Source of the DNA: a plasmid
Strand: one strand, 5' to 3'
Length of the DNA: 64,000 nt
NCBI RefSeq assembly: GCF_056712565.1
Contig: NZ_JBWXXM010000004.1
Part shown: in pieces, positions 6,786-11,171 of the stretch
How the letters are laid out: every line of letters begins with the position of its first letter
Numbering within the stretch: position 1 is the first letter of the stretch
Position numbers and translations under genes: made by a program
The notes under the pieces: model-generated
Databases searched by the model: none
What the model was told of the DNA's origin: nothing
The model's input: the letters and a program-made list of their open reading frames with translations, nothing else

Positions 6786-7978
6786 GTGACCTGGGACGAT
6801 CACAAGAAGAATTTTGCTCGCCTGGCGCGAGATGGTGGTTACACCATCGCACAATATGCCGCCGAGTTTAATCTCAACCCAAACACCGCACGTCGTTATC
6901 TCCGTGCATTCAAAGAAGACACCGGAACAGCGGACAGCCGTAAGCCAAATAAGCCTGTCAGAAAACCACTAAAAAGCATGATCATTGATCACGCTAATGA
7001 TCAACGTGCAGGTGATCACATTGTGGCTGAAATGGCTGAAAAACAAAGAGTTAATGCTGTTGTCAGTGCCGCAGTCGAGAACGCGAAGCGCCAGAATAAG
7101 CGCATAAATGATCGTTCTGATGATCATGACGTGATCACCCGCGCCCACCGGACCTTACGTGATCGCCTGGAACGCGACACCCTGGATGATGATGGTGAAC
7201 GCTTTGAATTCGAAGCTGGCGATTACCTGATAGATAACGTTGAAGCGCGGAAGGCCGCGCGCGCTATGTTGCGTCGGTCCGGGGCTGATGTTCTGGAAAC
7301 CACTCTTCTGGAAAAGTCTCTCTCTCATCTCCTTATGCTGGAGAACGCCAGGGATACGTGTATTCGCTTGGTTCAGGAAATGCGCGATCAGCAAAAAGAC
7401 GATGATGAAGGAACTCCGCCTGAATACCGTATCGCGAGCATGCTAAACAGCTGTTCCGCGCAGATAAGCAGCCTGATCAACACCATTTACAGCATCCGGA
7501 ATAACTATCGAAAAGAAAGCCGGGAGGCGGAAAAGCACGCTTTGTCTATGGGGCAAGCTGGCATTGTAAGCTGGCATACGAACGAAAGCGTGAAAACAAC
7601 TGGTCAGTGCTGGAGGCAGCTGAATTCATCGAGGCGCATGGAGGGAAAGTACCGCCCCTGATGCTGGAGCAAATCAAAGCCGATCTGCGTGCTCCTAAGA
7701 CCAATACCGATGATGAGGAAAGGCAAACAGCCGTCGGTGGCCCTTCTCTTGAAGATCTGGACAAAGTTGCGCGAGAACGGGCCGCCAACCGCCGCGCCGA
7801 TGCCGCATTGTGGATTGAGCAGCGTAGGGAAGAAATCGCCGATATCGTTGATACAGGCGGTTATGGAGATGTTGATACTGAAGGTGTATCAAACGACCCA
7901 TGGCTGGAACAAGACCTGGACGAAGACGAGGAGGAAGACGAAGAAGTTACCCGCAAGCTATACGGGGATGATGATTAA
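6786..7978 (+). CDS. pacA: terminase small subunit PacA, reading frame broken in this sequence (ORFs 6786-7661 and 7607-7978)
   Basis: Contains the pac hexamer cluster; directly precedes pacB; total span 1193 nt (one short of a multiple of 3); the second frame reads continuously upstream to about 7580. Confidence 0.65.
6979..7137. other. pac packaging site: 4 + 3 TGATCA/G hexamers flanking the cleavage region
   Basis: TGATCA at 6979, 6986, 6998, 7013 and TGATCG/TGATCA at 7109, 7121, 7132; each contains a Dam GATC; the 4+3 layout is that of P1 pac. Confidence 0.75.
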
Positions 7979-9462
7979 TGGCCAGAAGTTGCGTAACGGA
8001 TCCACGTTGGCGCGAGCTGGTGGCGCTATATCGTTATGACTGGATTGCTGCCGCTGATGTTTTGTTCGGCAAAACACCTACCTGGCAGCAGGATCTGATT
8101 ATTGAGTCTGTGCAGGAACAGGGTAGCAAGACATCTGTTTCGTCTGGTCACGGTACCGGGAAATCAGACATGACTTCTATCATGATCATGTTGTTCATAA
8201 TCATGTATCCAGGTGCCCGTGCCATTATCGTTGCGAACAAAATTCAGCAGGTAATGACCGGTATATTCAAGTACATCAAGATAAACTGGGCTACTGCCAC
8301 CAGCCGTTTCCCATGGCTTGCTGATTATTTTGTTCTGACAGAAACCGCTTTCTATGAGATTACTGGTAAAGGTGTATGGACTGTAGTACCGAAGGGCTTT
8401 CGTCTGGGAAGTGAAGAAGCTCTCGCCGGTGAACACGCAGATCATCTTCTGTATATTATCGATGAAGCCTCCGGTGTCAGTGATAGAGCTTTCGGTATCA
8501 TCACCGGTGCTCTTACCGGACAGGATAACCGCATCTTATTGCTGTCACAGCCTACACGCCCAAGCGGCTATTTCTACGATACACACCATAAACTGGCCAA
8601 GCGTCCTGGTAACCCTGATGGCGTTTATACGGCGATCACGCTTAACAGTGAGGAATCACCGTTGGTAACGCCAGCATTTATCAAAATGAAGCTGGCGGAG
8701 TACGGCGGGCGTGATAACCCTATGTACATGATTAAGGTACGCGGCCTATTCCCTAAATCACAGGATGGCTTCCTTCTTGGACGTGATGAGGTTGAACGTG
8801 CGACGCGGCGGAAAGTCAAGATTGCCAAAGGATGGGGCTGGCTTGCATGTGTGGACGTTGCTGGTGGTACGGGACGGGATAAGTCCGTTATCAATATCAT
8901 GATGGTGTCCGGCCAGAGAAATAAACGCCGTGTAATCAACTATCGAATGCTGGAATACACAGACGTTACAGAAACGCAGCTTGCCGCCAAAATTTTCGCA
9001 GAATGTAATCCTGAGCGATTCCCAAATATCACCATAGCGATAGACGGCGATGGGCTGGGTAAAGCAACGGCGGATCTGATGTACGAGTATTATGGTATTA
9101 CCGTACAGCGTATACGCTGGGGTAAAAAGATGCATAGCCGTGAAGATAAGAGCCTGTACTTTGATAAACGTGCTTATGCCAACGTTCAAGCCGCAGAGGC
9201 CGTAAAATCTGGTCGTATGAGACTGGATAAGGGTAATGAAACTATTGAGGAAGCGTCGAAAATCCCTGTAGGGATTAACTCCGCAGGTCAATGGAAGGTG
9301 ATGAGTAAGGAGGATATGAAGAAAAAACTCAACCTGCACTCACCAGACCATTGGGATACATATTGTTTCGCTATGCTGGCGGATTATGTTCCCCAGGATG
9401 AAGTGCTTAGCGTCGAAGACGAAGCGCAGGTTGATGAAGCTCTGGCATGGCTTAATGAATAA
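7978..9462 (+). CDS. pacB: terminase large subunit PacB
   Basis: 494-aa product; follows pacA; terminase-like ATPase region. Confidence 0.85.
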
Positions 9463-9486
9463 CTCATTGACCATGCCGGATGGAAA

Positions 9487-10338
9487 CTATTGCGCGCTTT
9501 CGGGGTTGTCGTTTACTGGCTGCCCTTTCTTAGTTTTACGGCTGCGCGTAACTGATGCGGCTGATTTGACCTTTTTCTCTTCGCGAGTGATGGCAATTTG
9601 TTTTTTTACATTTTCAATATCTGCCAGGCGATATATTTTTGCCTGCGGCCAGCGGTCGCAGATGATCGGTTCTATAGAGTCATAAAGGCTAAATTTTGCT
9701 TTCTCGAATTCACCGTTGATGATAATTCCATCACGGAGAGTTTCATCGCAGATAAACACACCACATAGCGGCACATGGTAACTAACTGATTTACCATCAT
9801 TGTAGTTAGGGCTACTAGAAATGTAATGGACGCGCAGCATTGTTTCGCTAAAGCCGTGTACGCGCATACGGAATTTTTCATCCTCCGGGTACTGCTTCAT
9901 TAGCTCTTTTGTTGCTTCCAGGTTCTCTATGTATTTCGCACTGTGCTCATTGATCCCTGCGCTTTTCTGGATGCGAATGTCCTTATCAATCAGATGAATA
10001 ATGCGGCCAGCGGTCATGTTGACGCTGTTCACAGCTTCTGTCTGATAAGTCGTAACCTTACGCACACCGCGAAGGATGTTAGGTACTGGATATAAAATAG
10101 TCTTTGGGATATTGAGGTCTGGGTACTGTTCCAGTTCCCGCGCCATTAAAGTCCATTTATCAATTTCAGCCTGAATGCTGTCAGTTTCTTTGAACGGCAG
10201 AACGACAACCGGGCGTACAGGACGACCGTCGCTGGCGGCATCAACGTGTTGGGCGCGTGCAACAGCTTTTTTTAGAAAGAGATCCCTGAAGCTGACGAAC
10301 TCCTGGTACAGTTGTTCGCCGTAGACATAATTTATCAT
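9487..10338 (-). CDS. c1: C1 repressor of lysogeny
   Basis: 283-aa product (length of P1 C1); convergent with pacB, downstream of coi, operators nearby. Confidence 0.85.
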   Translation of the reverse strand: MINYVYGEQLYQEFVSFRDLFLKKAVARAQHVDAASDGRPVRPVVVLPFKETDSIQAEIDKWTLMARELEQYPDLNIPKTILYPVPNILRGVRKVTTYQTEAVNSVNMTAGRIIHLIDKDIRIQKSAGINEHSAKYIENLEATKELMKQYPEDEKFRMRVHGFSETMLRVHYISSSPNYNDGKSVSYHVPLCGVFICDETLRDGIIINGEFEKAKFSLYDSIEPIICDRWPQAKIYRLADIENVKKQIAITREEKKVKSAASVTRSRKTKKGQPVNDNPESAQ

Positions 10339-10360
10339 TGATCCTCCTCCAGAATTGACA

Positions 10361-10403
10361 TGGCCAACAACTCACAGCGGATTACACTGGGAGTTGTTGG
10401 CCA
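10361..10403 (-). promoter_or_regulatory. perfect 13-bp inverted repeat in the coi-c1 intercistronic region
   Basis: tggccaacaactc ...17 nt... gagttgttggcca. Confidence 0.35.
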
Positions 10404-10448
10404 CCATTATAGAAGGATCCAACGAAAATAATAGATTTATTAGTGCAT

Positions 10449-10658
10449 TTATTGTGAGTCTGGCTGGTTAGTGGCCATGAGATATTCGATTGTGTCAGTG
10501 AGATCATCCAGGTCGTCTTGGGTGATGCGGTACTCCTGATTGGATATCTTTGAGTAGTGTTCAGCAATGGCGCGGGCAGCGTCGGTTTCGGCGGGGTCTA
10601 CAGATAAAGCGTTAGAGCAATGTCTAACGTCGTCGATGGTTGGTGGAATGAAAGCCAT
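10449..10658 (-). CDS. coi: Coi, C1 inactivator
   Basis: 69-aa product directly upstream of c1 on the same strand. Confidence 0.75.
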   Translation of the reverse strand: MAFIPPTIDDVRHCSNALSVDPAETDAARAIAEHYSKISNQEYRITQDDLDDLTDTIEYLMATNQPDSQ

Positions 10659-11029: not shown

Positions 11030-11063
11030 TTCAGACCTAATAACTTCGTATAGCATACATTAT
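11030..11063. other. loxP site-specific recombination site
   Basis: Exact 34-bp ATAACTTCGTATAGCATACATTATACGAAGTTAT (13-bp inverted repeats plus 8-bp spacer). Confidence 0.97.
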
Positions 11064-11171
11064 ACGAAGTTATCTTAAGGGTTATTGAACATGATCAATT
11101 TACCTGTAAATCCATACAGTTCAATACCTTATCAGGTCAAATAGTGATCACTTGATCATTTGATCAAGGTT

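Follow-up and report, generated by a model that had tools for sequence, protein, structure and literature searches.

The 64-kb stretch of DNA analysed here (the window) is phage P1-like, as loxP (11041-11074) and cre adjoin the coi and c1 genes. In its coi-c1 segment the window matches phage P1 records at 99.7-99.8% identity, and the assignments of coi and c1 made in an earlier sequence-only reading of this DNA are correct. P1-like coi-c1 loci are carried by 715 of 5426 complete E. coli genomes (13%), mostly on plasmids. Whereas coi is expressed from the P1coi promoter only, c1 is expressed from both P1coi and the nearer promoter Pc1 (PMC8546580). Annotation from the curated P1 record AF234172 was transferred by mapping, with locus position x corresponding to window position 11057 - x. 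The features of the region are as follows.

9487 to 10338, minus strand: c1 repressor gene, 283 aa (open reading frame; PF27008)
10338-10336, minus strand: c1 ATG (sequence)
10343 to 10350, minus strand: c1 Shine-Dalgarno sequence GGAGGAGG (sequence)
10361 to 10373, minus strand: 3' arm, lower stem of the RNA hairpin, GAGUUGUUGGCCA (repeat and fold)
10374 to 10390, minus strand: top of the hairpin, with a 1x1 mismatch, a 5-bp upper stem and a 5-nt loop (fold)
10390 and 10374, minus strand: the 1x1 mismatch in the hairpin top, C at 10390 opposite U at 10374 (fold)
10385-10389 with 10375-10379, minus strand: upper stem, 5 bp (fold)
10380-10384, minus strand: loop UAAUC, 5 nt (fold)
10391 to 10403, minus strand: 5' arm, lower stem of the RNA hairpin, UGGCCAACAACUC on the c1-sense strand (repeat and fold)
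10398 to 10399, minus strand: predicted Pc1 transcription start, within the 5' arm, from sigma-70 spacing (7th-8th nt past the annotated -10)
10406 to 10411, minus strand: Pc1 -10 hexamer, a perfect TATAAT (AF234172 annotation, verified in the sequence)
10412 to 10418, minus strand: pyrimidine motif ATCCTTC, directly 5' of the Pc1 -10, a candidate anti-Shine-Dalgarno sequence complementary to the c1 Shine-Dalgarno sequence
10422 to 10449, minus strand: bivalent C1 operator Oc1ab (Oc1a and Oc1b), overlapping the Pc1 -35 (AF234172 annotation)
10430-10435, minus strand: -35 of Pc1, formerly P99a (AF234172 annotation)
10449 to 10658, minus strand: coi, encoding the C1 inactivator (69 aa) and transcribed from P1coi farther upstream (open reading frame; PMC8546580)
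11492-12523, plus strand: cre

The gap between coi and c1 is 110 nt long and contains a perfect 13-bp inverted repeat, TGGCCAACAACTC (10361-10373) and its exact reverse complement GAGTTGTTGGCCA (10391-10403), with a spacer of 17 nt. The sequence-only reading had reported this repeat exactly as it occurs, and the distance given there, 23 nt upstream of the c1 start, matches the 22 nt that separate the repeat from the ATG. A repeat search lengthens each arm to 17 nt and leaves a 9-nt gap; the longer arms contain one mismatch (94% complementarity). Only one other perfect inverted repeat of at least 13 bp with a spacer of 3-30 nt occurs in the whole window, and it is loxP. First-order Markov simulations yield a mean of 0.08 such repeats per window, with at least one in 7% of the simulations.

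The c1-sense RNA is predicted to fold into a hairpin with 14 pairs, a 1x1 mismatch, 5 further pairs and a 5-nt loop, which amounts to 19 pairs and a free energy of -31.5 kcal/mol. This fold has a z score of -7.6 to -8.8 relative to dinucleotide shuffles, and none of 200 shuffles folds as well. The hairpin does lie between the two cistrons, as had been proposed, but the description as intercistronic needs qualification since the gap also holds Pc1 and Oc1ab, which makes the hairpin the promoter-proximal part of the c1 leader. Its 5' arm begins at 10403, the third nt past the Pc1 -10 (2 nt lie between), and its 3' arm stops 10 nt 5' of the c1 Shine-Dalgarno sequence, which is outside the stem. 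Because c1 is transcribed from P1coi as well as Pc1, two RNAs have to be considered, a read-through RNA that can form the whole hairpin and a Pc1 RNA that is predicted to start inside it.

Conservation of the hairpin was examined in 80 IMG/VR loci whose C1 is 99-100% identical, in annotated phage and plasmid relatives, and in contigs with C1 homologues at 71-79% identity. Wider searches added few true loci: C1 alignment to genome contigs gave only 4 loci, all of the P1 or RCS47 type, a c1 5' pattern gave one locus in metagenomes, and an operator pattern gave 27 loci in viral contigs of which only 4 were true. The comparative set therefore stayed at nine lineages (P1, RCS47, Cronobacter JK004, L096, L098, L100, L103, L105 and L135) in which C1 is 71-100% identical. 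C1 homologues at 53-59% identity (L092-L095) were left out, as they have a different upstream architecture with no equivalent hairpin.

All of the collected loci share one layout, in which coi is followed by an Oc1a-like operator, TATAAT, about 63-70 nt, and then c1. The operator, the TATAAT and the Shine-Dalgarno region are near-invariant across the lineages, and the Pc1 -10 itself shows no variation in those examined. The segment between TATAAT and the Shine-Dalgarno sequence is unrelated in sequence from one lineage to another, yet it forms a single hairpin at the same position in all nine. These hairpins have 14-19 pairs, free energies of -19 to -31.5 kcal/mol and z scores of -2.5 to -8.8, and their foot lies 0-3 nt past TATAAT. 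In most lineages a long lower stem is topped by a 1x1 mismatch or bulge and then by a short upper stem that carries a loop of 5-7 nt, and the 1x1 mismatch under the short upper stem recurs in P1, RCS47, L096/L098, L100 and L103. In P1, RCS47, L096/L098 and L100 the stem reaches 3-6 pairs upstream of the predicted Pc1 start.

Loci with essentially identical C1 fall into two hairpin alleles, the P1 type and the RCS47 type. The alleles differ at about 20 of the roughly 45 hairpin positions versus about 2% of positions in the flanks, where coi and c1 have 0-3 differences per 50 nt and none at all across 10200-10349. Among 16 distinct P1/RCS47-type variants, 91.8% of hairpin cells are paired and 6 of the 19 pairs change on both sides. 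The double changes are C-G to U-A (twice), U-A to G-C, A-U to G-C, G-C to U-A, and conversion of the mismatch column to C-G or A-U. When a candidate outer helix (described below) is included, the whole structure is 92.6% paired, as opposed to 34-56% with the 3' partners slid; sliding leaves 0-1 double changes, and no shuffle attains the observed covariation score. Comparison of L096 with L098 adds two further compensatory pairs. Of the stem polymorphisms found within alleles, about half disrupt a pair, which indicates that the stem is not under strong purifying selection in the population. The two outer pairs (columns 24-25), which lie upstream of the predicted Pc1 start, account for three of the five distinct pair-breaking polymorphisms, a pattern that favours the reading as a Pc1 leader given below.

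The strand on which the structure is maintained can be judged from G-U pairs: the sense-strand folds contain 23 of them and the antisense folds 4. In 8 of 10 lineages the sense fold is also the more stable of the two. The concentration of G-U pairs on the c1-sense strand indicates that selection acts on RNA rather than on a DNA palindrome or an antisense RNA. Together with the conserved structure and the compensatory changes in divergent P1-like loci, it upholds the earlier proposal of an RNA hairpin on the coi/c1-sense strand, for which the comparative support is unusually clear. The first ~45 nt of the c1 leader thus very probably constitute a structured RNA element, with selection on the c1-sense RNA fold and not on its sequence.

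This element is missing from the annotation of five records (P1, P7, RCS47, P7-immC and phiW39-immC), none of which has a stem-loop at this place. No Rfam family matches it, the best scores being 15-19 bits against thresholds of 58-100, with E values of at least 2.8. Literature searches found no description of the hairpin, no mapped Pc1 start and no P1 TSS data. Since its shape is maintained in related phage-plasmids through a complete change of sequence, it is probably an mRNA control element of a common sort that had escaped description, belonging to the class of cis-acting leader or intergenic stem-loops.

How much C1 is made relative to Coi is believed to govern whether P1 enters lysis or lysogeny (PMC8546580). 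It is a reasonable hypothesis that the hairpin sets the C1:Coi ratio, and there are several distinct mechanisms by which it might do so. Published models treat the lysis-lysogeny choice in terms of promoters, operators and protein-protein binding. A covarying RNA element between the c1 promoter and the ribosome site would be an easily mutable handle on post-transcriptional control of C1 and Coi. It would also matter for engineering of P1 phagemids or c1-Pc1 cassettes, where a leader trimmed at the "promoter end" would cut the hairpin.

The best available explanation, which we hold tentatively and rate at somewhat below an even chance, is that the leader stem-loop provides Pc1 transcripts with a base-paired 5' end, resulting in a protected, well-translated repressor message. 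In E. coli, 5'-terminal stem-loops protect mRNAs from the 5'-end-dependent decay pathway of RppH and RNase E, the ompA leader being the type example of such a stabiliser. Pc1 transcripts are predicted to start about 7-8 nt past the -10, within the 5' arm, and each Pc1 mRNA would then be born with a flush base-paired 5' end, consisting in P1 of 8 + 5 pairs with a stability of about -18 to -21 kcal/mol. In predicted folds, RNAs begun at the 7th-9th nt past the -10 refold as a hairpin with 0-2 unpaired 5' nt, with the exception of the latest start tried in L100. Such a stem-loop could shield the Pc1 mRNA from RppH and RNase E in the ompA manner, and by locking away the upstream sequence it could keep the strong Shine-Dalgarno sequence in a defined context. 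The expected outcome is a long-lived and well-translated c1 message from a weak, autorepressed promoter. In the P1coi read-through RNA, the full 19-pair helix would form between coi and c1 and could act there only as an intercistronic structure, and with either RNA the element would bias the output of C1 relative to Coi.

The resemblance to the ompA 5' UTR lies in a predicted stable hairpin at the extreme 5' end, upstream of an accessible Shine-Dalgarno sequence, with the sequence free to vary and the structure constrained. The c1 leader differs in that its 5' end is predicted from promoter spacing, and in that its helix of 19 pairs has many more than a 5' stabiliser requires and continues past the predicted start on the upstream side. 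This surplus length, the two compensatory changes upstream of the predicted start (described below) and the frequency of broken pairs within alleles count against the stabiliser as the whole explanation.

Alternatively, the hairpin could be the core of a two-state leader in which translation of c1 depends on which promoter made the RNA. In the read-through RNA the hairpin would nucleate a larger structure, with the pyrimidine stretch CGUUGgAUCCUUCU (10424-10411) paired to the c1 Shine-Dalgarno sequence and AUG (GGAGGAGGAUCAAUG), an arrangement that we consider unlikely on balance. P1coi read-through RNA would yield Coi and little C1 if its Shine-Dalgarno sequence and AUG were clamped in this way, and Pc1 RNA, which starts past the anti-Shine-Dalgarno strand, would be freely translated and make C1; the two-state leader as a whole is equally doubtful. 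If it were true, the promoter from which the RNA came, and not only the amount of RNA, would determine the lysis-lysogeny ratio. The order of elements recalls the T4 e and I-TevI transcripts, in which an inhibitory 5' strand is followed by an internal promoter and then the ribosome-binding site (PMC3014915). Similarly, the Pc1 -10 (10411-10406) is downstream of ATCCTTC (10418-10412), and Pc1 transcripts consequently lack the 5' strand.

Several predictions are consistent with such a switch. The MFE structure of a 151-nt segment of the P1 read-through RNA includes the outer helix (-47.8 kcal/mol, z -5.1). Pairing of the Shine-Dalgarno sequence with the 15 nt that precede the -10 has a predicted probability of 0.96 in P1, 0.93-0.98 in L005, L007, L096 and L098, and 0.57-0.95 in JK004, L100, L103 and L105, but only 0.27-0.51 in RCS47-type alleles. 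For RNAs started at Pc1, total pairing of the Shine-Dalgarno sequence amounts to 0.3-0.6 in most lineages, with L100 higher at 0.7-0.8. ATCCTYN directly 5' of TATAAT, which is outside Oc1b, is kept in nearly all variants while the preceding 6 nt vary, and the whole 90-nt segment is a quasi-palindrome as judged by reverse-strand CM matches. These same matches contaminated the CM-based alignment, which was used for inspection only.

The covariation that marks the hairpin is not seen in the outer helix, however, as its 13 pairs have no double changes among the 16 variants. Three of these pairs are lost in subsets of variants, for example through a C-A in the abundant RCS47 allele and through GATCACTT in another RCS47-type variant. 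Any pyrimidine-rich stretch can pair with a GGAGG Shine-Dalgarno sequence, and cognate anti-Shine-Dalgarno duplexes (-9.6 kcal/mol) have no stability advantage over non-cognate ones (-9.0 kcal/mol), with composition-preserving shuffles giving p = 0.004-0.31 per lineage. Moreover, a very strong Shine-Dalgarno sequence may out-compete a helix of -10 kcal/mol. The leaders of T4 gene e, soc and I-TevI share with the c1 leader the order of elements and the prediction that long transcripts hide the ribosome-binding site and short ones cannot (PMC3014915). They differ in that the c1 leader has a large independent hairpin between promoter and ribosome-binding site and an anti-Shine-Dalgarno helix that is weak, lacks covariation and is degraded in the RCS47 allele. 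In addition, Pc1 is a repressor-controlled promoter of the sigma-70 type and not a late promoter.

It is also possible, with a probability that we again put low, that the full helix of 16-20 pairs with its internal mismatch, which only the read-through RNA can form, is a processing or decay signal that is either cut by RNase III or serves as a 3' barrier after cleavage or termination, so that the lifetimes of the coi and c1 segments would be uncoupled. In every lineage the helix comprises about 14-19 pairs, and a 1x1 mismatch or bulge recurs in it, a shape reminiscent of phage RNase III sites such as T7 R1.1 and the lambda N leader. RNase III sites have about 20 bp of double-stranded RNA, often with an internal loop, and by that measure the length of the helix is suggestive but marginal. 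The pairs upstream of the predicted Pc1 start, which a Pc1 transcript would lack, are kept and include two compensatory changes, one at column 26-62 (P1 vs RCS47) and the other at the 5th nt past the -10 (L096 vs L098), and this suggests that the complete helix has a function in the read-through RNA. The Pc1-truncated form, with 13 pairs, would escape RNase III and processing would thereby be selective for one transcript. On the other hand, the hairpins of L103, L135 and JK004, with 14-16 pairs, G-U pairs and asymmetric loops, are short for E. coli RNase III, and no link of RNase III to P1 immC was found in literature searches. Like the phage RNase III hairpins (T7 R1.1, lambda N leader, sib), the c1 element is a hairpin with an internal mismatch, about 14-19 pairs long, that lies in a leader or between genes in a regulatory transcript of a phage, and it differs from them in that its length is variable and at the low end.

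Two other roles for the structure are far less probable. An intrinsic terminator or attenuator that halts P1coi transcription before c1 would account for the stable GC-containing hairpin found where coi ends, which satisfies the GC-rich stem-loop part of a terminator, and L096 has UUUAGUUUUUU past its stem. The P1 stem, however, is followed by UGUCAAUUCUGG with no U-tract, a U run is found in only one of the nine lineages and is absent from L098, the sister of L096, and c1 is reported to be expressed from P1coi too (PMC8546580). A terminator scan gave nothing at the hairpin, and with no U-tract in P1 or most lineages this role was rejected.

A DNA-level element is just as hard to sustain, whether a palindrome bound by a protein or a cruciform in the Pc1 start region, or a functionless quasi-palindrome kept by template-switch mutation. 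The perfect palindrome does overlap the start region of the promoter, and template switching can mimic compensatory change where selection is absent. The strand-specific excess of G-U pairs, however, is expected from neither DNA symmetry nor template switching, and nine lineages keep a hairpin at this position with no sequence common to them despite the same or similar C1, Coi and host. The C1 operators are asymmetric 17-mers, and the annotated Oc1a-e lie elsewhere, none of them overlapping 10361-10403.

Other candidates were rejected. An antisense RNA would require a plus-strand promoter, and no convincing one is present; the TTGACA at 10355-10360 lacks a -10 at a spacing of 16-18 bp, and a promoter scan found none. 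Pairing of the 3' arm with c1 codons 7-10 (10310-10320) is lost in the RCS47 allele and is probably due to chance. Two short leader peptides can be read in P1, of which MVANNSQCNPL* (10407-10372) is absent from the RCS47 type and MSILEEDQ* (10361-10335) is absent from all of the distant lineages. No other match or complement to the 19-nt arm at up to 3 mismatches occurs in the 64-kb window, and a partner acting in trans was set aside.

RNA-level control of immunity with structure kept while allele sequences differ is already represented in this phage by the c4 antisense RNA of P1/P7 immI and its ant targets. The c1 leader is unlike that system in that no antisense promoter or complementary partner was found, and in that P1 and P7 have the identical hairpin allele. 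The two alleles of the c1 leader are most simply explained if a more distant lineage donated a short tract, with the conserved flanks as recombination anchors. Diversifying selection is not required for this, though it may have taken part. In a still more speculative extension of the two-state leader, the alleles would be specificity variants recognised in trans. The two are present at about 50:50 in E. coli plasmids: PLSDB has 330 records at 99% identity or above and 318 at 90-95%, and among complete E. coli genome records the corresponding counts are 354 and 335.

The region of strong divergence between the two hairpin alleles found in coi-c1 loci, P1-type and RCS47-type, is narrow. Over window positions 10350-10449, which include the hairpin (10361-10403), there are approximately 22 differences per 100 nt from the RCS47-type loci L009 and L003, compared with 0 to 3 for every 50 nt of coi or c1, and this sharp hotspot does not extend beyond the hairpin. 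Among the plasmids of PLSDB, as among complete E. coli genomes, each allele has a frequency near 50%. Candidate origins for the hotspot are a short recombination tract and diversifying selection.

Other features in and around coi and c1 are as follows (window positions).
7978-9462, plus strand: 494-aa ORF in the region downstream of c1
10335-10361, minus strand: uORF of eight codons, MSILEEDQ followed by a stop
10372-10407, minus strand: ORF of eleven codons, MVANNSQCNPL followed by a stop
10412-10418: ATCCTTC, in the spacer of the c1 promoter Pc1, directly before TATAAT
10444-10476: 33-nt stretch with a match in a CRISPR array, covering the 3' end of coi and the start of operator Oc1a
10610-10629, minus strand: terminator-like inverted repeat inside coi, CGTTAGACATTGCTCTAACG then CTTTATCTGT

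Codons 7-10 of c1 (10310-10320; mRNA sequence GGCGAACAACU) are similar to the hairpin's 5' arm, with 10 of 11 positions able to pair with its 3' arm. This pairing is probably due to chance since only 7 of the 11 pairs, by our count, are left with the RCS47 allele. The inverted repeat inside coi overlaps the annotated C1 operator Oc1c.

The pyrimidine motif ATCCTTC is conserved even though it lies outside the annotated operator and the adjacent spacer bases are variable. Nearly all variants carry it in the form ATCCTYN, while one RCS47-type variant has GATCACTT. We know of no promoter rule that explains this conservation. The motif is complementary to the Shine-Dalgarno sequence of c1.

Of the two small ORFs in the c1 leader, MSILEEDQ has its start codon (AUG) where the hairpin stem ends, lacks a Shine-Dalgarno sequence of its own and terminates at a stop codon that overlaps the c1 start (AUGA). 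Inspection of the sequences by eye found it to be invariant among P1/RCS47-type loci and missing in distant lineages. MVANNSQCNPL starts within the Pc1 -10 element (TATAAUG) and its reading frame crosses the hairpin, but it is probably meaningless because it is missing from the RCS47 allele. In the L098/L099 lineage the gene caller took the equivalent ATG, which lengthened C1 to 304 aa.

Contigs L092-L095 encode C1 homologues with 53-59% identity and constitute a distant clade in which the region upstream of c1 differs and includes a divergent HTH_3 gene. Both coi and a large leader hairpin are absent from this upstream region, which contains an operator-like palindrome (CTCTAAAAAA...TTTTTTAGAG) and a -10-like hexamer, TACTAT.

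The 33-nt stretch at 10444-10476 is 100% identical to positions 1048247-1048279 of E. coli ETEC1701 (NZ_CP122938.1), which fall inside an annotated chromosomal CRISPR array (1048036-1048431), and a second match occurs at NZ_CP134663.1 3681424-3681456. These look like host spacers directed against P1 immC.

Downstream of c1, positions 8300-9490 align poorly to L009, with approximately 45% mismatches plus gaps, despite c1 itself being approximately 98% identical. The poor alignment may reflect a divergent allele or a failure of the alignment.
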